Shown here in pieces: positions 2-11,899 of a stretch of DNA of 11,899 nucleotides (position 1 is the first letter of the stretch; every line of letters begins with the position of its first letter). A model generated the notes under the pieces. It saw only the letters and a program-made list of their open reading frames with translations, was not told where the DNA came from and ran no database searches. The stretch comes from Candidatus Thorarchaeota archaeon (GTDB lineage: Archaea; Asgardarchaeota; Thorarchaeia; Thorarchaeales; Thorarchaeaceae): NCBI GenBank assembly GCA_029858305.1, contig JAOUFI010000071.1, positions 1 to 11,899 of the forward strand, in the 5' to 3' direction. A program made the translations under genes and the position numbers.

Positions 2-1069
2 CCTCATCAGATGCATTTTCACCCAACCAATCTTGGTAGGCCAGGGAATGTTCACACGACAATGCAACAGCTCGATGCAATCAAGAGTGTCAAACCATCA
101 GGTAAGAAGAAGGAAGTCGTTCATCTGACACATATGGCATTTGATTGTCTTGGAGTAGTTGAAGAGGGAATGGCAAATTGGAAGGATGTTGCGTCTGGCG
201 GATTGATATTTGCAGATTACTATAACAAGAACAAACACTTCACAACTGATCTAGGACAAATCACCTTTGGACAATCAATGACAATGACCGGAGACGGACC
301 GTTTCAGCACTCCCTCTACCTGTTGACTGGCGGAAAAGCAAAATGGTCAAACATCCCAGTTGATGTTGAACTTCCTGGCGGAGCAGGTATTGTACCCTTC
401 ACTTTTGAACCAAAGAGCCCCGCAAACGCGGTTCAGTGGGTCGGATCGCTTGAGTTTGCACTCAGCATAAAGGACCTTTGGAGAATGTTCTTGAGCACAG
501 ACCACCCGAATGGTGGGCCATTTCTGAAATATCCATTATTGATATCGTGGTTGATGAGTAAAAAACAGAGAGATAACTGGTTGGAGATGGTTCACAAGTT
601 TGCCATTGAACGTTCAACCATTGCCAACATAGAAAGAGAGTATTCACTCAACGATATTGCTATTACAACACGAGCGGCACCTGCAAAAATACTCGGTATG
701 GAAAAGACGAAAGGGCATCTTGGTGTTGGTGCTGATGCAGATGTTGCTGTATATGGATTCAATCCTGAAAAAACAGATTTGGCAAAGAATCCCGACTTGA
801 TTCTCAAACACTTCGCCCAGGCGCAGTTCACCTTTAAAGGTGGAGTACAGGTTTCGAAGAATGGGGTTGTTGCCAAGCAGATACACTCAAGAGTGCATAC
901 AACACACCCTAAGCTCAATGAAGCTCTAAGTACAAGAATTGATAGAGAACTTGAAGAAATGATGAGTAAATGGTTCTCGCATTCCTTCAGTAACTATCCT
1001 GTTCCAGCAAGGTACCGAGAGCATCTTGAGATTCCAAGAGTGATCGATTCAACATCAGTACAGGCTTAG
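2..1069 (+). CDS. fwdA: Formylmethanofuran dehydrogenase subunit A (amidohydrolase), 5'-truncated by the window edge
   Basis: Frame is open from base 2 (P-H-Q-M-H-F-H...). FwdA motifs: PHxxHxHxxNLGxPGN, HLTH, DLGQITFG, TMTGDGP, LSTDHPNGGPF, TRAAPAKILG..KGHLGVGADADVAVY. The ATG at 11 is internal. Confidence 0.95.
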   Translation, partial: PHQMHFHPTNLGRPGNVHTTMQQLDAIKSVKPSGKKKEVVHLTHMAFDCLGVVEEGMANWKDVASGGLIFADYYNKNKHFTTDLGQITFGQSMTMTGDGPFQHSLYLLTGGKAKWSNIPVDVELPGGAGIVPFTFEPKSPANAVQWVGSLEFALSIKDLWRMFLSTDHPNGGPFLKYPLLISWLMSKKQRDNWLEMVHKFAIERSTIANIEREYSLNDIAITTRAAPAKILGMEKTKGHLGVGADADVAVYGFNPEKTDLAKNPDLILKHFAQAQFTFKGGVQVSKNGVVAKQIHSRVHTTHPKLNEALSTRIDRELEEMMSKWFSHSFSNYPVPARYREHLEIPRVIDSTSVQA

Positions 1070-3821: not shown

Positions 3822-4604
3822 TCAATTTTTCTCAACGATTGAACGACAGTCATCGATGCCTACTGCTTCACATACAGCATATCTCGCATTGTAACCAGCA
3901 ACATGAAGAAGAGCGTCTCCCACTTCTCTGTCTTTTGCCATTGATGCAGTGCATGGATAGGAATGGTGTGCTTTTGCTATAGTGTCAAATAGCTCATCAG
4001 TGTTCTTGATAGACTTACCACGCACCTTTTGACTGACATACCATGAACATCCGCAGGGTGCAGAACGTAAAGGACCAATCTCTGAGATGATATCATCCTT
4101 CATGTCTGCATAGTGGATAGGACGTCCTATCCGATACTTTTTCATGAATTCGTCGATGAGCGCTCCAGAGCCTGGTTCCAATGTACAGAAGGGTTTGGGG
4201 AATGCAGATTCAATGCCCATGTTGTCTAAGGTTTCCTTCACTTGTGCTCTCAAACCAGGCGGAACCCAAGTCGGATCTTCTATGGGAACAATAACAGCCT
4301 TTGCACTTGTGGATTCTATCAAAAGGTCAACAGAGGCTAAAAGATCATGATGTATTGCGACAATAAGAAGGAGGTCACATTCAGTGAGATTCAGACCATC
4401 GATGTAGTTCTTTGGTTCTTCAATCATTGTAGGAGAAGGCGGGTCTACAGGATAGATGCCAACGATGTCACCAACGTGTGATCCATATGCAGATCTACAT
4501 TCAGAACATGTCGGTTCGCAACCTTCGCAGAATGTTTTGAAGTTGATGAGATTACCAATGACTCGCTCGGCAAATACGTCCCCATAGACTGTTCCGATTC
4601 TCAA
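3822..4604 (-). CDS. DUF166 family protein with a Cys-rich insert
   Basis: ERxIxNL, IHHDL, PKPFCTL, LRSAPCGxSWYV, HHSYPCTASMxxD, LHxAG. Likely TTG start at 4604 because the GTG at 4613 lies inside an AGGTGAT RBS. Confidence 0.8.
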   Translation of the reverse strand: MRIGTVYGDVFAERVIGNLINFKTFCEGCEPTCSECRSAYGSHVGDIVGIYPVDPPSPTMIEEPKNYIDGLNLTECDLLLIVAIHHDLLASVDLLIESTSAKAVIVPIEDPTWVPPGLRAQVKETLDNMGIESAFPKPFCTLEPGSGALIDEFMKKYRIGRPIHYADMKDDIISEIGPLRSAPCGCSWYVSQKVRGKSIKNTDELFDTIAKAHHSYPCTASMAKDREVGDALLHVAGYNARYAVCEAVGIDDCRSIVEKN

Positions 4605-4758
4605 AAATATCACCTATAGAATATTGTGAGGTTTCTGTTAGGCTAAAAAAGGATGATGATTGCGGCTCAGTGTACAAATTTGCGACATCAGAAACATAAT
4701 ATGCCGCACCTATCATGCTGATTCTCTCAGGAAGATCAAATTCAGGAGACCTAATGAT

Positions 4759-5154
4759 ATGGCATTGGGAGATTTCCTATTCCCTCAAGTGGAGCTTCAA
4801 TTAGTTATTGTCAGATCGTTCAAAACTGATATTGAGTCAGCAAGAGGTATACCCTCAGAGAAGTATTCTACCGAAACAGCATCAGTACGTCTTAACAATA
4901 ACGACATGCGAAGGTTGAGCCTAAAGGAGGGAAGTGCTATCAGTTTGAAGTCTGATAGCGGAACAGTAATTGTTAGAGCTGAAATCGATGATAAAGTTCC
5001 TGAAGGAAGTGCAGTCATGCCACACGGTCCATGGGCACTTGCTCTAGTTGCAGTTCCAGCCAATAATTCACCGCCTGCATTTAGTGGAATTGCAATCATT
5101 GCTACACGAAGTAAAGAAGATATCACTTCTCTCGAGACTTTGTTTGGTCCTTGA
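4759..5154 (+). CDS. fwdD: FwdD-like protein (molybdopterin dinucleotide-binding fold), degenerate
   Basis: 131 aa from ATG 4759 with AGGAG at 4744-4748. Pattern LNxxDMxRLxLxEGxxIxLxSxxGxVxVxA...PEGxxxMPxGPWA...PxFxG matches FwdD. Confidence 0.82.
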   Translation: MALGDFLFPQVELQLVIVRSFKTDIESARGIPSEKYSTETASVRLNNNDMRRLSLKEGSAISLKSDSGTVIVRAEIDDKVPEGSAVMPHGPWALALVAVPANNSPPAFSGIAIIATRSKEDITSLETLFGP

Positions 5155-6472
5155 GTTTCCCGATGATCTTATCGACACGGCCTCGTTCAAGTTGAAGGTT
5201 GAGATGGGGATCCTCATCAAGCATAGTTCTGAGATTCTTTGCGACTGCCATTGCTCTGGCACGGTCACCATCAATAGATTTCCAAGCACTGTGTTCTCTA
5301 ACCTTTCCAGGTTTAATCTCTTCAGCCTTAAGTATAATATTCCTCTCAAAGAATCCACTGGGCGGATGCTCTTTTCCAACTACCTCATCAAAGAACAACA
5401 TTCGGCCACGTTCCCATTCACGGGCTTCTTCGAGTTTTTCGACATTATATCCCTCTCGCTCTACTTCGAGAACATCATACGGACAAGAATTGGCACAAGC
5501 ACCACAGTAGACACAATGGTCAAGTACAGCAATCTTATCCGATTTTCCTGTTGGATATATTGCCTTTACTGCGCATATATTGAAGCAATTGTGGCAACCA
5601 ATAGGATCACACTTATCGAGTTTTATAATATTAACAGCTCCAGAGAAAGGCTTTGAAACCTCAATTGCATCATAGGGACACACCTCGCCGCAGAGTCCGC
5701 ATTTAACACAAGCAAGATCGTTTTGTTTGAGCTTTCCTGTAATCTTTGGCTCTTTGATAATCCGGGCGCTTGCTTCTGTACATTTGACTTCTATGGCTTC
5801 GTCCGGACATATCTTCTCGCAGAGCTTGCAGTAGTCACATTCCTTTTCATTTAGTCTGATTGCTGTTGCAGGCTTGAATTCGGGAGGCTCTGCAGAATCC
5901 GACCAGTATATCCTAATTACTTCAGGACAAAGCAATTCGCAGAGACCGCAGTATGAACATTTGTCTTCATCCACCTTAATGCTGCCCTCTGCATGGACCT
6001 CTTTCATATAGGTGACTAGGTCTTTCTTTTTCTCAACGTCCACCTGAACCTCAAGAGCGCCAGTCGGACACACTTTAGCACAAAGAAGGCAAGGAGCACA
6101 TTTATCGTAATCAATCTCATGCGTTCCTGATACACGGTTGAAATGATTTACAGCCCCATCGCCTTCATACTTAGTAGTGAAAGCCCTGAAAATACAAGCT
6201 GAATCACATAGTCCACAAAAGGTGCAAATTTCAGGATCAATATTGATGAGTGGAGCTCCTTCAATTCTACCTGCAGCAGCTTCAGGAACAGGTCCAATCG
6301 TTATGGCATCCCAAGGACAGTAAAGACAAAGACTGCAACCGACACATTTGTCAATTGAGTAATCAAGGACTTTAGTAAGAAGGGAAGTTTTCCAAACAAA
6401 TTTGAGGGTACCATCGATAAGTTCCATCGTGATGGTTGGTTTTTCCCCAACTGTGATTCCTGTCTTACTCAT
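5123..6472 (-). CDS. fwdF: Polyferredoxin with 8 [4Fe-4S] motifs, FwdF/FmdF-like
   Basis: Eight ferredoxin motifs (CVGCSLC, CTFCGLC, CAPCLLC, CSYCGLC, CDYCKLC, CVKCGLC, CDPIGCHNC, CVYCGAC), a KPFxG linker and fwd gene context. ATGA overlap with the hdrA stop and a GGAGG RBS. Confidence 0.85.
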   Translation of the reverse strand: MSKTGITVGEKPTITMELIDGTLKFVWKTSLLTKVLDYSIDKCVGCSLCLYCPWDAITIGPVPEAAAGRIEGAPLINIDPEICTFCGLCDSACIFRAFTTKYEGDGAVNHFNRVSGTHEIDYDKCAPCLLCAKVCPTGALEVQVDVEKKKDLVTYMKEVHAEGSIKVDEDKCSYCGLCELLCPEVIRIYWSDSAEPPEFKPATAIRLNEKECDYCKLCEKICPDEAIEVKCTEASARIIKEPKITGKLKQNDLACVKCGLCGEVCPYDAIEVSKPFSGAVNIIKLDKCDPIGCHNCFNICAVKAIYPTGKSDKIAVLDHCVYCGACANSCPYDVLEVEREGYNVEKLEEAREWERGRMLFFDEVVGKEHPPSGFFERNIILKAEEIKPGKVREHSAWKSIDGDRARAMAVAKNLRTMLDEDPHLNLQLERGRVDKIIGKLKDQTKSREK

Positions 6473-8910
6473 TTGGATCCTCCCTTCTTCTTTGGTGACA
6501 TCTTTGCCTTGCTTTGAGTTTTCACACTCGTCTCGCTTCCAAGTGGACCAAGAGATATTATGTTACTAGTGAACTCAGTTACCTGTTTTGCATATTGACC
6601 GGCTTCAGATGCGGATACGCTGCCGAAATATAGACGCCTCCCATCAAAACCAGCCGCCTCTAATACTGTCCTTAGATTATCTGTTCTTTCCTGCGCATGT
6701 AGTGCTCCTGAACGATAATGACAGTCTTGAACATGACAACCAATTACTGCAACTCCATCAGCACCTTCTTCGAATGCAGTCAGTAAAATATCAGTATCAA
6801 GACGACCAGTGCAAGGCACTTGAATGGGTACTATATTTGAAGGATAGGTTAAGCGTGTCATTCCAGCCCTATCCGCTGCGGAATATGCGCACCATCTACA
6901 CAAATATCCGACAATTAATGGTTTGGAGCCACTGAACCGAACTGCACTCCTTGTGGCTGCCAATAACTGTTCGGTGGTTAAGCTGGGTAGATTAAGAGCA
7001 GCAGTAGGACAAGCTGCAACACATGCGCCGCAACCTCGACATGCGGCTTGGTTAATAGTAGGTTTATCTCCATTGTTAGAACGTATTGCATTTGGAGAAC
7101 AGACCTGTTGGCACTGAAGACAGTTGATGCATAGGTCGTGGTCAATTGTTGGGACAGTCAGATCTGTCAGAATCGTACTACTTGTTAGAAGAGTTTTCAC
7201 CTTTGAAGCTGCCAATCCTGCATGTGCAACCGTATCAGAGATATCTTTTGGAGCCTGCGATACTCCTGCAAGAAAAATCCCTTTAGAGGCAGTACCACTC
7301 AAGTTTAGTTTAGGGTGTTGTTCTAGGAAGAATCCATTCTCATCCAACGGTATTTTTAGCAATTTTGAAAGATGTTGGTTGCTCGGTGCTGGGTCCATAC
7401 CTACCATCAAGACAACAAGATCAACATCCAGGTATAGCATTCTCTTAAGAAGGGTGTCTTCTGCTCTTACAAAGGTCTTACCTTTTACTGAATCATGAAC
7501 TACCTCACCCACAGCGCCTCTCACAAAATGGATACCATACTCATCAGCAGCTCGAACACTCAGTTCTTCATGGCCCTTACCAACTGTTCGAAGATCGGTG
7601 TAGAAGACATAGGTTTCACAATCCGGATGAAGCTCTTTTACTTGGATAGATTGCTTTACAGCCTCTGCGCAGCATGCCCTACTGCAATATGGGCGATTGA
7701 ATCGCATTGTCCGACTTCCAACACAGTTAATGAACACTACACTACGTGGAGCGCTGCCATCAGAGGGTCTTATGAGCCTACCACCTGTAGGACCTGAAGG
7801 ATTGATCAGCCGTTCAAGTTCGAGGGATGTGATGACATCAGGATTTTCACCATATCCAAGTTCTTCCACAATTGAAGGGTCGAATGGACGAAATCCCGTG
7901 GCGACTATGATTGCGCCTACCTCGATGGTTTCGGTTTTAGTGCAATCATCGTACCGAATTGCTTTTGCCTCACATACTCCACTGCATGACTGACAACCAA
8001 CACAATTATCCATGTCGATATGTGGAGCTATTGGCACAGCGTCAAGTGAGTGTCTTACGATTGCCTTTCTCTTACCTAAACCATGGTTATATTCATCTAC
8101 AACTTCAACAGGACAAACTTCAACACACCTATTGCAGCCAGTACACAGCTCTGTGGACACGTATCTTGGGTGCTGCGTCAGTTTCACAGAATATCTTCCT
8201 GTGCTGCCCTTGATTTCTTCAATATCAGTGAGTGTCATCAATCGGATGTTCGAATGATCAGCTGCTCTCGCCATCATCGGACCCAAGATGCAGATGCTAC
8301 AATCGAAGGTTGGAAAGAGCTTATCCCATCTTGCCATATGACCCCCCAGAAACGCTTCTTTCTCAACAAGCACTGTTTCAATTCCTTGGTCAGCTAGCTC
8401 AAGAGCTGCAGTTACACCTGCCACACCTCCTCCGATTACCATAGCTCTTTGAACTACAGGCATCTCAAAAGTCCTGATTGGATTTGAAAGTCCAACTTCT
8501 GCTAAGCCGATGTCAATTATAGTGGCTGCTTTTGAGGTCGCTGCCTCACGGTCGTCACTATGTACCCAACTGCATTGTTCACGAATATTTGCCACGTGAA
8601 GATGTCCAGGATCAATCCCTGCCGCACGGACAGCATCATTGAAGAGCTCTTTATGGAGAAGTGGTGTACAACCAGCAATGACGACTTTCTCGGCTCCACT
8701 CTTCTTGATTGCCAAGGTCAGCTCTTGAACACCATGATCAGAGCATAAGTGGTCGTTGACTTCAACTACTGCCACTCCCCGTGACTCCACTCGCTCTTTG
8801 AGATCTTCGATATCTATTGGCCCAGCAATATTCGAGCCACACTTACAGAGGAAAACAGCAACTCTATTCTTCTCGTTTTTGTCTGAGTTGGATTGTGAGT
8901 TGCGCTTCAA
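6469..8910 (-). CDS. hdrA: Heterodisulfide reductase subunit A fused to a C-terminal MvhD domain
   Basis: CxCGxNI..CS..AGCTP..NIREQCSWVH, VIGGGVAG, DKxFPTxDCSICI, inserted 2x[4Fe-4S], LELERL, CVGSR..YCSRxCC, PKDI, C-terminal 2x[4Fe-4S], then MvhD motifs CRWCAYxAAD, PCTGR, GCHxxDCHY. Start uncertain: TTG 8910 (AGGAG 13 nt upstream) preferred, ATG 9006 is an alternative. Confidence 0.95.
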   Translation of the reverse strand: MKRNSQSNSDKNEKNRVAVFLCKCGSNIAGPIDIEDLKERVESRGVAVVEVNDHLCSDHGVQELTLAIKKSGAEKVVIAGCTPLLHKELFNDAVRAAGIDPGHLHVANIREQCSWVHSDDREAATSKAATIIDIGLAEVGLSNPIRTFEMPVVQRAMVIGGGVAGVTAALELADQGIETVLVEKEAFLGGHMARWDKLFPTFDCSICILGPMMARAADHSNIRLMTLTDIEEIKGSTGRYSVKLTQHPRYVSTELCTGCNRCVEVCPVEVVDEYNHGLGKRKAIVRHSLDAVPIAPHIDMDNCVGCQSCSGVCEAKAIRYDDCTKTETIEVGAIIVATGFRPFDPSIVEELGYGENPDVITSLELERLINPSGPTGGRLIRPSDGSAPRSVVFINCVGSRTMRFNRPYCSRACCAEAVKQSIQVKELHPDCETYVFYTDLRTVGKGHEELSVRAADEYGIHFVRGAVGEVVHDSVKGKTFVRAEDTLLKRMLYLDVDLVVLMVGMDPAPSNQHLSKLLKIPLDENGFFLEQHPKLNLSGTASKGIFLAGVSQAPKDISDTVAHAGLAASKVKTLLTSSTILTDLTVPTIDHDLCINCLQCQQVCSPNAIRSNNGDKPTINQAACRGCGACVAACPTAALNLPSLTTEQLLAATRSAVRFSGSKPLIVGYLCRWCAYSAADRAGMTRLTYPSNIVPIQVPCTGRLDTDILLTAFEEGADGVAVIGCHVQDCHYRSGALHAQERTDNLRTVLEAAGFDGRRLYFGSVSASEAGQYAKQVTEFTSNIISLGPLGSETSVKTQSKAKMSPKKKGGSK

Positions 8911-9085
8911 GGGATTCGTGTAGCTCCTATGTGTATTGTGATTATTCTCGTGTTGCCAAATATTCAATAATCCTATCTTAAATAACTCCTTGAAAGTCCA
9001 TACCATAACGGATAATTGTTGTGGAGTGTGCACAGAAAGAATCTGAACAACGATATAGAGGAAGAAATCACGGAGTTCCTTAACA
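8911..9085. promoter_or_regulatory. Divergent promoter region between hdrA-fwdF and fwdG-fwdB-cooC
   Basis: Head-to-head genes with an AT-rich gap. TATA-like CTTAAATAA (TTATTTAAG on the minus strand) at about 8977-8985. Confidence 0.45.
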
Positions 9086-9544
9086 TTGAAACTTAATCCC
9101 ATGGAACTGTACAATCTACTACCGAAAACGAACTGCAGGCAATGCGCCCCTAAAACATGTATGGCCTTTGCTACCAAGCTTGCTCTTGGGGATGTGAACG
9201 CTGATGATTGCCCTCCATTATTGGAACCAGGGTTCGAGAAAAACCTGAAAACAATAAGAGAGCTAACAGCACCTCTTCTGTCGACTGCTGAAACAGGCGT
9301 GAAACTAGATGAGGAAAAATGCACAGGATGCGGTAACTGTGTAGTTGCATGTCCAGTGGATGTAGCGGTTGAACCACCAACAGGCATAGGGAAAGCTGCG
9401 AGAGGAGATGTTACAGTCTTTAGAATTGATAATGGAGTGGCGAAGATTATCAATTTAGAGAAATGTAGACGCTTTCCACCCGACCGCTTGAACTGTAGAG
9501 TGTGTGAGCAGTACTGCTGCACAGATGCAATTGAGATATGGTAG
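9086..9544 (+). CDS. fwdG: FwdG-like ferredoxin with an N-terminal RnfB/AcsC-type FeS domain
   Basis: N-terminal LPxTNCxxCxxxTCMAFA...CP domain, then CTGCGNCVVACP and C-x9-CRVCEQYC..DAI. Directly upstream of fwdB. TTG start with GGAG at 9072-9075. Confidence 0.8.
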   Translation: MKLNPMELYNLLPKTNCRQCAPKTCMAFATKLALGDVNADDCPPLLEPGFEKNLKTIRELTAPLLSTAETGVKLDEEKCTGCGNCVVACPVDVAVEPPTGIGKAARGDVTVFRIDNGVAKIINLEKCRRFPPDRLNCRVCEQYCCTDAIEIW

Positions 9545-9553
9545 GTGTAGCGC

Positions 9554-10843
9554 ATGGATGATATCGTATGTAATAGATGCTCTTTGCTCTGTGATGATGT
9601 GCTTGCACAGATTAGGGATATGGAAACTAAGTCTTTGGGTCTCTGTCGACTCGGTCATACTCATCTTGAGAGAGTAGCACATTTTTCAAAGATTGACGCC
9701 ATATCCAGAAAGAATGGTGTGGAGAATGGTCTGAACCTCGACGAAGCTTTAACGATGGCAGCAGAAACACTCATCTCAGCTAAACATCCTCTACTCTATG
9801 GATGGTCTCGGTGTACAAATGAAACGATTAGTGAGGGACTCTCCCTAGCTAAAACATTGAAGGCGGTCTTTGACTCAAGTGCAAGTATGGGTCTTAGTCA
9901 GTCTATGAGTCATAATATCCATAATATGAAACTAGAGACTGATCTTGAAGCGGTTCAAAATAATGGTGAATTCATCATTTACTGGGGTAGCAATCCGGTC
10001 GAAAGCAGTCATAGACATGCGAGCCGATTCACAGTTTTTCCTCGAGGCGAGAACGTGCCACAAGGTGTTGAGAGTAGGATTACTGGTGTCGTTGACGTAA
10101 GAGAAACTGAAACAATGAAAATGGGAAATCATCGCATTATCATTCCTCAAGGTGGAGATAGCGAGCTAGCAAGAGCTCTGATTGATGACCTCACGGGAAA
10201 AACACCCCTTAAGACACCCATTCTGGGCCTACCAGCTGCAACATTGGTGGGCATATCCCAAGCCCTGAGAAAGTCAGATTTCACCGTCATTTTCTATGGA
10301 AGTGGCATAATCAATTCAGGCAAGACCGCGGAGAACCTTTCTCTTCTCGCTGAGCTCATCCAAACACTGCGAGATTTAGGAAAGAATGCATACGCAATGC
10401 CCATGTGGCATGAACCAAGTGATATGAGCGTGATAAAATCATCAAAAAAACTAACATCCACTCATCTAGCCATTGACTTCTCGTCGGGAAAACCCACTCA
10501 GTTGAGTGCTAAAACCACCTTTCAGAGATTGACAGCAAAAGAATTTGATGTGGTGCTAGTTGTAGGAACTGATGCCTTTGCAGTACTACCAGGTCAAGCA
10601 GCAAGAGGTCTGACTAGTTCAAACATTATCTACATCGGTTCAGGAGGGAGTCTTATGGACCAATGGGCTCAGCTTTCACTGAGAGTCGCTGACGATATCA
10701 TGTCAGCATCGGGATCTATGACCAGGATTGACATGAAAGATATTCAGCTCAAATCTTGGAGCGGATCTAAAATGGCATCCCAAAACGTATTTGATGTAAT
10801 TACACGACTTCATCGATTGATAGAGGCAAGACTCAAGGATTGA
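9554..10843 (+). CDS. fwdB: FwdB-like protein lacking the W/Mo-ligating residues
   Basis: CxxCxxLCDD..CRLG cluster motif, PLLYGWS, IIYWGxNP...RHxSRF..FPRG, VVDVRxTxT, DFSSGxP. Length of 429 aa is typical for FwdB. AGGTG RBS at 9543-9547. Confidence 0.92.
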   Translation: MDDIVCNRCSLLCDDVLAQIRDMETKSLGLCRLGHTHLERVAHFSKIDAISRKNGVENGLNLDEALTMAAETLISAKHPLLYGWSRCTNETISEGLSLAKTLKAVFDSSASMGLSQSMSHNIHNMKLETDLEAVQNNGEFIIYWGSNPVESSHRHASRFTVFPRGENVPQGVESRITGVVDVRETETMKMGNHRIIIPQGGDSELARALIDDLTGKTPLKTPILGLPAATLVGISQALRKSDFTVIFYGSGIINSGKTAENLSLLAELIQTLRDLGKNAYAMPMWHEPSDMSVIKSSKKLTSTHLAIDFSSGKPTQLSAKTTFQRLTAKEFDVVLVVGTDAFAVLPGQAARGLTSSNIIYIGSGGSLMDQWAQLSLRVADDIMSASGSMTRIDMKDIQLKSWSGSKMASQNVFDVITRLHRLIEARLKD

Positions 10844-10865: not shown

Positions 10866-11663
10866 ATGAAGATTGCAGTTGCTGGAAAAGGTGGCGTCGG
10901 CAAGACGACAGTTGCTGGAACATTAGCGAGATTATTAGGACGAGATGGGCTCAAGATACTTGCAGTTGATGCCGATCCAAGCTATACGTTGTGGACAGCT
11001 CTAGGAATCCCAGCAGATATTGCAAAGAAGATAGTACCACTTACACAGAATGAGACCCTCGTGAAAGAAAGATTGAAGATCGAGGGAGCAGAATCCTACA
11101 GTGGATTCTTCAAGTTAAATCCGCGCGTTGATGATTTGTCTTCTAAGTTCGCAGTCCAAGGTCCGGATAACGTGAGTCTTCTAGTTGCAGGGACTGTCGA
11201 TACAGGAGGATCTGGTTGTATGTGTCCTTCAGCAACTCTTCTCAAGAGCCTTATGCGTCATCTTGTACTCGGAACTGACGAGGCTTTTGTAATGGATATG
11301 GATGCTGGAATAGAGAACTTAGGTCGTGGCACAACACGTGGAATTGATGCCTTATTGGTTGTCACAGAACCTGGTCGTAGATCCCTTGAAATTTTGACAA
11401 AGATACGAACACTAGCAGGGGATATTGACGTTGGGCGTATTTTTGCTGTGGGAAATAAAGTAACTAGTTCAGCGGATGCTCAGATGATAAAAGAATGGGT
11501 TGAAAGAGAAGGTCTTTCACTTCTAGGGAGCATTCCCCTAGATGATGTGATAAAAGAAGCAGACAGAAGAGGTGTTGCTCCACTTGATCTTGACTCCAAC
11601 TCTACTGGCATGCGTGCTATTGCAGAGATTAAAGAGCGATTGGTTAAACAAATCAATCGCTAA
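10866..11663 (+). CDS. cooC: CooC/AcsF-type MinD-family ATPase (nickel insertion chaperone family)
   Basis: GKGGVGKTT deviant Walker A, VDADP, LNPxVDD, GSGCMCP metal-binding CxC, DMxAGIExLGRGT, NKV. AGGTGAT RBS at 10850-10856. Confidence 0.88.
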   Translation: MKIAVAGKGGVGKTTVAGTLARLLGRDGLKILAVDADPSYTLWTALGIPADIAKKIVPLTQNETLVKERLKIEGAESYSGFFKLNPRVDDLSSKFAVQGPDNVSLLVAGTVDTGGSGCMCPSATLLKSLMRHLVLGTDEAFVMDMDAGIENLGRGTTRGIDALLVVTEPGRRSLEILTKIRTLAGDIDVGRIFAVGNKVTSSADAQMIKEWVEREGLSLLGSIPLDDVIKEADRRGVAPLDLDSNSTGMRAIAEIKERLVKQINR

Positions 11664-11847
11664 CCATTATTTTGATATTATTTCACTTTGAAATATTAAA
11701 AGAGATATGATTAAGTTTCTTAACCAATGCAGCACTATTCAGTTAACGATTGAAAACGGTTATTTTTTGAGTGGAGTTTGACTGGTTCACAACCTTATTT
11801 AGGTGCAATGTTAAGCGGAAAATAATACGTTCAGGAACTGTGCAACC

Positions 11848-11899
11848 ATGAAGAAGAAAGCGTACTTCAAGGCGGATGAAGCCAAGACAGGGCTTGGCG
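11848..11899 (+). CDS. Start of an unidentified CDS running off the window (MKKKAYFKADEAKTGLG...)
   Basis: ATG after an AT-rich intergenic region with a TATA-like CCTTATTTAG and AGGA upstream. Frame is open to the edge, but only 17 codons are visible. Confidence 0.4.
   Translation, partial: MKKKAYFKADEAKTGLG

Follow-up and report, generated by a model that had tools for sequence, protein, structure and literature searches.

FwdB2, a paralogue of formylmethanofuran dehydrogenase subunit B without the active-site residues, in a conserved Hdr-linked gene set of Asgard archaea

Cofactor-less lineages have been recognised within the MopB family, among them FhcB, Nqo3 and ActB (Wells 2023, PMC10100899). 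In bacterial FhcB, Ser62 stands for Cys118, His119 and Arg288 are missing, and the N-terminal [4Fe-4S] domain has been lost; FwdD, a fourth domain critical for capping and coordinating the tungstopterin, is absent from Fhc (Hemmann 2019, PMC6926001). Here we describe FwdB2, a paralogue of the formylmethanofuran dehydrogenase subunit FwdB, encoded at positions 9554-10843 of an 11,899-nt stretch of DNA from Candidatus Thorarchaeota archaeon (assembly GCA_029858305.1, contig JAOUFI010000071.1; this whole stretch is hereafter the window). It is encoded within a conserved set of genes that also specifies a FwdD-like cap (FwdD2), a polyferredoxin, HdrA, a small RnfB-like iron-sulphur (Fe-S) protein and a CooC-like ATPase. 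A preliminary description, made from the DNA alone, held that FwdB2 is a maintained subunit unable to carry out CO2/formate redox chemistry. The residue losses, the clade and the selection reported below support this view and make it highly likely, the loss of redox function being deduced from sequence.

The FwdB/FmdB proteins (5T5I_B, 8RJA_B, 7BKB_H, 9SFI_Q, 9SW6_J) share with FwdB2 their length, three-domain fold, four-Cys motif and separate FwdD-type cap. FwdB2 differs from them in being without the Cys/Sec-His pair, the Arg-Gly-His motif, the Lys and the acidic loop residue, in scoring below the family cut-off, in having no operon with fwdA or fwdC and in evolving three to four times faster. 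In FhcB (6S6Y), whose role is non-catalytic, the metal ligand and both catalytic residues, His and Arg, are likewise gone. However, FhcB belongs to fhcBADC, with Ftr and a hydrolase, whereas FwdB2 keeps the cluster cysteines, FwdD2 and Hdr-type Fe-S partners; the contrast drawn earlier with FhcB, in which the Fe-S cluster too is gone, is borne out by the published account (PMC6926001). Similarity between the two proteins is low in sequence (26 bits over 50 residues) and in fold (template modelling (TM) score 0.65-0.66).

The closest precedent is the Molybdop clade, without the ligand Cys, which is encoded in type II hdrABC-mvhD-fdhB clusters of ANME-2/3, Methanolobus, Methanomethylovorans and Methanosarcina and has been modelled as non-catalytic and structural (PMC12054007, 2025). 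Like FwdB2, it belongs to the MopB family, lacks the ligand Cys and is encoded with HdrA and MvhD. Its description sets it apart, since Molybdop is reported near FdhG and FhcB, together with FdhB (F420) and HdrBC, in methane metabolisers, whereas FwdB2 is nested among FwdB-like sequences, has a polyferredoxin, an RnfB-like protein and FwdD2 as partners, adjoins CODH/ACS and is found in a non-methanogen. NuoG/Nqo3 of complex I also has a MopB fold that has lost the pterin and remains in an Fe-S electron-transfer assembly (Wells 2023, PMC10100899), but is a large fusion with additional N-terminal clusters in a membrane complex and a remote relative, giving only about 24 bits with the FwdB2 clade profile. 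In the Fdh-Hdr-Fmd supercomplex of Methanospirillum hungatei (7BKB/7BKC), HdrA, a polyferredoxin and FmdB/FmdD occur together in an architecture that recalls the FwdB2 set; there, however, FmdB is intact and HdrBC and FdhAB are present, whereas in the FwdB2 set the end of the putative wire would be inert and neither HdrBC nor Fdh is encoded.

Some matches filed under FwdB have been noted to lack the Cys, and 83 of 548 FwdB homologues come from Asgard metagenome-assembled genomes (MAGs), but the available part of that survey holds no description of the present gene set (PMC10100899). A full-text literature search, supplements aside, returned no description of the Asgard FwdB2 set, and the same is true of the available main text of PMC11291895, bioRxiv 10.1101/2020.10.19.343400, PMC9635834 and PMC9012536. 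The set would appear to hold a non-catalytic MopB subunit in an Fe-S/Hdr assembly, a kind for which there are published precedents.

The frame at 9554-10843 is on the forward strand and translates without a stop into 429 aa, in agreement with the full-length frame proposed for it. A phmmer search of all PDB chains matched it end to end with FwdB of Methanothermobacter wolfeii (5t5i_B, E 9.7e-40), the next FwdB/FmdB chains being 8rja_B, 9sw6_J, 9sfi_Q and 7bkb_H. Opposite the DNTASVCHGPS of 5t5i_B, which contains Cys118-His119, FwdB2 has DSSASMGLSQS, with Gly113-Leu114 (GGT CTT, 9890-9895) replacing Cys-His. Opposite PMRGHYNV it has PMWHEPSD, the beginning of PMWHEPSDMS, where Trp285 (TGG, 10406-10408), His286 and Glu287 replace Arg-Gly-His (Arg288). 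CRLGHTHL faces CRIGHSKF, His replacing the Lys between cluster and pterin, and IYIGSGGS faces IAIEPHRT, the acidic loop residue being gone. The alignment thus contains every loss listed in the preliminary description, at the codons given there. It also places Cys6, Cys9, Cys13 and Cys31 on the cysteines of the N-terminal [4Fe-4S] cluster, all four of which had been said to be kept. No TGA was found in the DNA at the ligand site, so that FwdB2 hides no selenocysteine there.

Against the NCBIfam FwdB model TIGR03129, FwdB2 matches end to end at 260.5 bits, below the cut-off of 327.8, while the canonical FwdB of the same genome reaches 517.7-518 bits; Pfam at default thresholds gave no match for FwdB2. 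An AlphaFold2 model built on 74 sequences (predicted local distance difference test (pLDDT) 91.7, predicted TM score 0.91) has a full-length FwdB fold. It superposes on active FwdB/FmdB chains (8rja_B, 5t5m_B, 7bkb_H, 5t5i, 5t61) with TM scores of 0.85-0.90 and root-mean-square deviations of 2.7-3.6 Å, compared with 0.65-0.66 for FhcB (6s6y) and a Foldseek TMq of 0.68 for NuoG (7awt_G).

A word-indexed search returned 257 relatives of FwdB2. The best 120 of these, 44-100% identical to it, are named in their sources as MAGs of Thorarchaeota, Promethearchaeota, Sifarchaeia or Odinarchaeota, and relatives of FwdB2 carry the JGI name "formylmethanofuran dehydrogenase subunit B". Columns were counted over 121 sequences, FwdB2 of the window and relatives at 44-94% identity, with 15 canonical FwdB as controls. 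The ligand column holds Gly in 118, Ala in two and Ile in one, with Cys in 0/121 and no other candidate ligand (Sec, Ser or Asp) in the family of the window protein. The His119 column is mixed (L 40, P 26, V 15, M 11, S 10, A 9, I 5, T 4, others) and the Arg column is without Arg (F 51, W 25, Y 22, A 18, S 3, G 1, C 1). His is the most frequent residue in the Lys column (H 109, Y 6, Q 4, R 2), and the acidic loop position is Gly in all 121. The equivalent columns of the canonical proteins read C 15, H 15, R 15, K 12/R 2/M 1 and D 12/N 1/T 1/E 1. Variable pocket columns and a mostly aromatic Arg column are as expected of a disused site. The four Fe-S cysteines, by comparison, are present in 117, 118, 120 and 121 of the 121 sequences, the missing ones being N-terminal gaps and one Phe. 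Since the close relatives are also Cys-less, neither recent decay nor an assembly error accounts for the residues of the window protein.

The FwdB2 frame is intact in 21/21 related loci (393-430 aa), as are all six genes of the set. Ratios of nonsynonymous to synonymous substitution (dN/dS) were obtained by the Nei-Gojobori method from pairs with dS <1.5, which leaves 2 of 231 FwdB2 pairs; two pairs are few, and the intact frames across 44-76% identity weigh more for maintenance. In these two genome pairs FwdB2 gave 0.151 and 0.137, which indicates purifying selection on the Cys-less form, and canonical FwdB of the same genomes gave 0.048 and 0.032. Values for the other genes of the set were 0.049 and 0.045 (HdrA), 0.029 and 0.044 (polyferredoxin), 0.024 and 0.027 (RnfB-like protein), 0.050 and 0.045 (CooC-like ATPase) and 0.120 and 0.076 (FwdD2), FwdB2 and FwdD2 being the fastest-evolving. 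Selection maintains FwdB2 but constrains it three to four times less than its active paralogue.

The gene order around FwdB2 is fixed. The window is the entire contig C82 of a MAG of 3.04 Mb in 205 contigs (88.9% complete) and contains the following features.

2..1069, forward: 3' part of the canonical fwdA, continuing contig C116
3146-3853, reverse: DUF3786 gene, a frequent neighbour of the set in family f1
3822-4613, reverse: DUF166 gene, a frequent neighbour in f1, weakly similar to the DfsP selenoprotein family
4759..5154, forward: FwdD2, a divergent FwdD (cap domain IV of the molybdopterin fold); PF01568, 48 bits
5123..6472, reverse: FwdF-like polyferredoxin, 449 aa; FwdF model NF042909, 212.5 bits, below the cut-off of 375
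6469..8916, reverse: HdrA fused to MvhD, 815 aa, TTG start; FlpD, Fer4 and FAD (flavin adenine dinucleotide) domains
8917..9100, no strand: divergent intergenic region of 184 nt between the hdrA and rnfB-like starts, as placed by the corrected starts
9101..9544, forward: RnfB-like Fe-S protein, 147 aa; N-terminal PF04060 FeS domain and a two-cluster ferredoxin domain
9554..10843, forward: FwdB2, FwdB paralogue, 429 aa; identified by TIGR03129 (260.5 bits), PDB alignment and AlphaFold2 fold
10866..11663, forward: CooC-like P-loop ATPase (CbiA/MinD family), 22 nt behind FwdB2
11848..11899, forward: 5' end of cdhA (CODH/ACS alpha), start codon at 11848, continuing on contig C108

Synteny was followed by tblastn with the window proteins as queries and 21 loci of two Asgard families (f1, 16 loci; f14, five) as targets. 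The order FwdD2 (+), polyferredoxin (-), HdrA (-), RnfB-like (+), FwdB2 (+), CooC-like (+) recurs in all 21. FwdD2 was found in 20, the remaining locus ending at a contig end, and cdhA is next on the same strand in 16/16 f1 and 4/5 f14 loci (20/21). One locus (L036) has the whole series cdhA-B-C-D-E plus CooC (NCBIfam). None of ftr, fwdA and fwdC is part of the conserved set in these loci. Extra DNA of 1-2 kb interrupts the set in L042 (7010-9022), in L048 and L050 (between HdrA and polyferredoxin) and in L052 (there and also between HdrA and the RnfB-like gene). The DUF3786 and DUF166 genes, which share 32 nt, occur in 14/16 and 8/16 f1 loci respectively and in 0/5 f14 loci. Among 400 genomes of the phylum, FwdB2 matches above 300 bits are confined to 40 genomes, all of them f1 (86 f1 genomes searched, the present one among them); 18 of 19 f14 genomes have matches of 244-276 bits, and the remaining matches reach 193 bits or lower. 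In three relatives whose genomes hold one FwdB each (G313, G315, G311), the arrangement is simply fwdD-fwdB-fwdA, without the Hdr set within 9 kb.

The relationship of FwdD2 to canonical FwdD is visible only by profile and fold, BLASTP giving no match between them at E <= 100. Comparison with the genome's own FwdD by hhalign gave 98.2%, its profile matches 2ki8_A and 5t5i_D in the PDB, and its AlphaFold2 model (pLDDT 86.8) superposes on 8rja_D and 5t5i_D with TM scores of 0.83-0.84. The polyferredoxin has 33 Cys, in six CxxCxxCxxxC motifs and two variants, equivalent to about eight [4Fe-4S] clusters. The RnfB-like protein, whose PF04060 domain is that of RnfB and of the CdhE N-terminus, is 146-147 aa long in 21/21 related loci, with 12 Cys invariant in the 21 sequences and three clusters; its stop lies 9 nt ahead of the FwdB2 start. 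HdrA, with its MvhD/FlpD domain at the C-terminus, is 795-828 aa in the 21 related loci, and the HdrA2 model covers residues 231-1008 of a 1028-aa open reading frame (6469-9555, -). An HdrA of 1028 aa with an N-terminal domain was rejected as over-extended, its first ~213 codons being antisense to the RnfB-like gene at 9101-9544. An apparent HdrA in two pieces in relatives was likewise discarded, as spurious N-terminal tblastn matches from this antisense stretch. The window encodes no HdrBC, hydrogenase or FdhB. A sigma-70 scan gave 4 promoter-like sites against 6.1 expected and 0 terminators, under a bacterial model that is not applicable to archaea.

The contig ends place the set between the two CO2-reducing systems. 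The window start (1-153) overlaps the end of C116 by 153 nt, 151 of them identical, and its end (11740-11899) overlaps the reverse complement of the C108 end by 160 nt, 159 of them identical, so that the three contigs (C116, the window, C108) make up a continuous stretch of about 32 kb encoding fwdC-mch-ftr-fwdD-fwdB-fwdA, then the Hdr set, then cdhABCDE-cooC. Each overlap has one or two mismatches, which suggests that the assembly was interrupted by strain differences. C116 itself accounts for fwdC, mch, ftr, fwdD, a canonical fwdB about 9.5 kb upstream of FwdB2 with DNTTSVCHGPT and PMRGHYNVSG intact, and the 5' part of fwdA. Because its product retains Cys-His (CH) and Arg-Gly-His (RGH), CO2 reduction is covered by a gene other than FwdB2. 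The FwdA of the window (2-1069) was considered as a second paralogue and ruled out, since the C116 overlap makes it the 3' part of the only fwdA in the genome. Neither fwdF nor fwdG is present in the canonical operon on C116, so that near it such genes are supplied only by the Hdr set, as the polyferredoxin and the small Fe-S protein. C108 continues with cdhA, B, C, D and E and a second CooC-like gene. Right behind fwdA (1085-1816, +), a 243-aa protein has a weak match (23 bits, below cut-off) to a folate-family energy-coupling factor (ECF) transporter S component; a homologue lies near fwd and mch genes in another family (L075).

The evolutionary context was examined in 11 loci from other Asgard families (L054-L063, L065), nine of which have a FwdB-like gene in a comparable Hdr-linked setting. 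The RnfB-like antisense signal adjoins the FwdB-like gene in seven (L054, L055, L056, L057, L058, L060, L061), four of them with HdrA and polyferredoxin as well (L056, L057, L058, L061). L062 and L063 have HdrA, polyferredoxin and Cdh nearby without the RnfB-like signal, Cdh being near several of the others too, and L059 and L065 have neither the signal nor HdrA, polyferredoxin or Cdh. The residues vary: CH and RGH are canonical in L059, L062 and L063; Cys-His is kept, with Ala, Ile or Ser at the Arg position, in L054, L055, L057, L058, L061 and L065; L056 combines Cys-His with AEN; and Cys is lost in L060. The type with Cys-His kept and Arg replaced (CH/xGH) is undescribed, and occurs also in representatives named Baldrarchaeia and Thermoprotei. 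Since Cys-His is kept in comparable settings in other Asgard families, the Hdr-linked FwdBD-type module is widespread and the residue loss lineage-specific. In f14 (L048-L052), Glu-Tyr occupies the Cys-His position in 5/5 proteins, with Ser at the loop Asp and, in 4/5, a Cys two residues past the former Arg-Gly-His; a carboxylate so placed may point to a change other than plain loss.

In an unrooted tree of 65 rows (IQ-TREE, "quick" mode, whose starred support values call for caution), f1 (100) and f14 (100) are sisters (96), so that the Cys-less form is a well-supported clade. A Cys-less Bathyarchaeota sequence joins f1 and f14 (96). Together they fall within the CH/xGH forms, and a separate clade (98) is made up of the canonical CH/RGH proteins. 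FwdB2 has 567 matches at E <= 0.001 in a 50%-identity library. Of the best 150 of these, 121 rows reach 370 aa or more, and motifs were counted in them, the alignment of distant rows being less certain: 117 have the four Fe-S cysteines, 39 the ligand Cys and 12 both CH and RGH. In 80/121 the Cys is missing and the four Fe-S cysteines are kept; these are mostly unnamed metagenome proteins of several separate lineages. By these counts, FwdB-like proteins that keep the cluster cysteines without the ligand Cys are evidently frequent and have received little study.

Taken as a whole, the model that we favour, with a probability of roughly 0.6, is that FwdB2 acts as a non-catalytic relay or scaffold in an Hdr-linked wire of the Wood-Ljungdahl pathway. 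FwdB2 and FwdD2 would pair as FwdB does with FwdD, forming a degenerate FwdBD-type module. Electrons would run along an Fe-S wire from the HdrA flavin through the polyferredoxin and the RnfB-like protein to FwdB2, the single cluster of the FwdB2/FwdD2 module being the end of the wire or a node in it. The polyferredoxin of the 7BKB supercomplex, which reportedly bridges HdrA to FmdB, offers a parallel, and the part played by FwdB2 would resemble those of NuoG, FhcB and the Molybdop proteins. The FwdB2 cluster would exchange electrons with the RnfB-like protein and, through the polyferredoxin, with HdrA-MvhD. FwdB2 would not itself reduce CO2; as an electron relay, a docking scaffold or both, it could couple the Hdr-type module to FwdABCD, to CODH/ACS or to both. 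With no fwdF- or fwdG-type gene in the canonical operon on C116, the Hdr-side Fe-S proteins would be the obvious electron input for FwdABCD, CODH/ACS or both, and FwdB2/FwdD2 may dock there. A more specific form of this idea must be regarded as doubtful: FwdB2/FwdD2 might be a plug that passes low-potential electrons, running from HdrA through the polyferredoxin and the RnfB-like protein, directly to CODH/ACS and/or FwdABCD without free ferredoxin. The result would be a Wood-Ljungdahl supercomplex peculiar to Asgard archaea, with a one-time CO2-reductase subunit reused for docking and relay.

Several observations weigh against the relay or scaffold model. Neither the electron donor of HdrA nor its high-potential acceptor is encoded in the set; elsewhere in the genome, CCG domains are encoded by about 20 genes and large subunits of [NiFe]-hydrogenases by three to four, and neither McrA nor an FrhB/FdhB (FrhB/FdhB_C) domain was found in this genome, which is 88.9% complete. 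The 184-nt gap between cooC and cdhA leaves co-transcription with CODH/ACS putative at most. Of the 64 positions at least 90% conserved in the 15 canonical FwdB, 26 are kept in the FwdB2 clade, including R175, D181, R183, D202, F247, G249, G251, D340, P346, R391 and D393; these presumably form part of the motifs with which a MopB fold binds dinucleotides. A dedicated FwdD2 cap has been retained, and the clade profile gives 348 bits with an active FwdB (5t5i_B) and only 26 bits over 50 residues with the cofactor-less FhcB. These retained positions, the cap and the profile scores fit a pterin-binding protein, and a plain relay would have no obvious need of them.

It is therefore pertinent to ask whether FwdB2/FwdD2 might bind W/Mo-bisPGD (bis-pyranopterin guanine dinucleotide), or a metal-free pterin, without a protein ligand and perform another redox step fed by the Hdr/polyferredoxin wire. 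AioA holds its cofactor without an amino-acid ligand in this way (Wells 2023, PMC10100899). The 26 of 64 positions are not merely kept but invariant in the clade, the cap is present in 20/21 loci and under purifying selection, the profile stands at 348 bits to 5t5i_B and 26 to FhcB, and the carboxylate of the invariant f14 Glu-Tyr (5/5) could ligate a metal. Nevertheless, such a role seems unlikely. The pocket columns vary freely and no new conserved active-site residues have appeared in the clade; an aromatic residue (F, W or Y) fills the Arg column in 98/121, the loop position is Gly in 121/121 and the cluster-to-pterin Lys has been replaced; and FwdB2 and FwdD2 are the two genes of the set that evolve fastest.

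It is likewise improbable that FwdB2 is a pure structural scaffold in the manner of FhcB, for example as a dead second arm of FwdABCD, with a structural cluster that carries no electrons. In its favour, scaffold roles have precedents (FhcB, the Molybdop clade), FwdB2 lies about 9.5 kb from the canonical fwd operon, and the constraint on it is relaxed. However, FhcB shed its cluster domain on becoming a scaffold, whereas each of the four cysteines is kept in 117-121 of 121 clade members, FwdB2 follows by 9 nt a 12-Cys Fe-S gene with a dN/dS of about 0.025, and the conserved set is without ftr, fwdA and fwdC.

A function in assembly or maturation, such as that of a platform which holds a cofactor or cluster and serves CODH/ACS or FwdB together with the CooC-like ATPase, is suggested by the adjacency of FwdB2 and the CooC-like gene on one strand in 21/21 loci, 22 nt apart in the window. 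It is very unlikely, since CooC-type genes are ordinary members of cdh clusters, a second CooC-like gene closes the cdh cluster here, FwdB2 has no resemblance to a known chaperone, and the linkage to Hdr, polyferredoxin and FwdD2 would be left unaccounted for. A decaying pseudogene, or residue changes due to assembly or sequencing errors, would be suggested by the missing residues themselves only and is refuted by the intact frames (393-430 aa) in 21/21 loci, the 120 relatives that share the state, a dN/dS of 0.14-0.15 and a confident AlphaFold2 model.

The favoured model of a non-catalytic relay or scaffold has consequences beyond this locus. Under the annotation "formylmethanofuran dehydrogenase subunit B", metabolic reconstructions of Thorarchaeota-type Asgard archaea may count an inoperative CO2 reductase. 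FwdB2 marks a conserved Hdr/polyferredoxin/Fe-S set that lies between both CO2-reducing enzymes of the archaeal Wood-Ljungdahl pathway. The series that starts from CH/RGH, continues with forms that keep CH and have another residue for the Arg, and ends with Gly or Glu at the ligand position, all in similar Hdr-linked contexts, constitutes a natural experiment in the passage from a molybdo/tungsto-enzyme to a non-catalytic Fe-S subunit. If the model is true, a hard-wired, bifurcation-fed route would provide a testable answer to the question of how low-potential electrons are supplied in non-methanogenic archaea.

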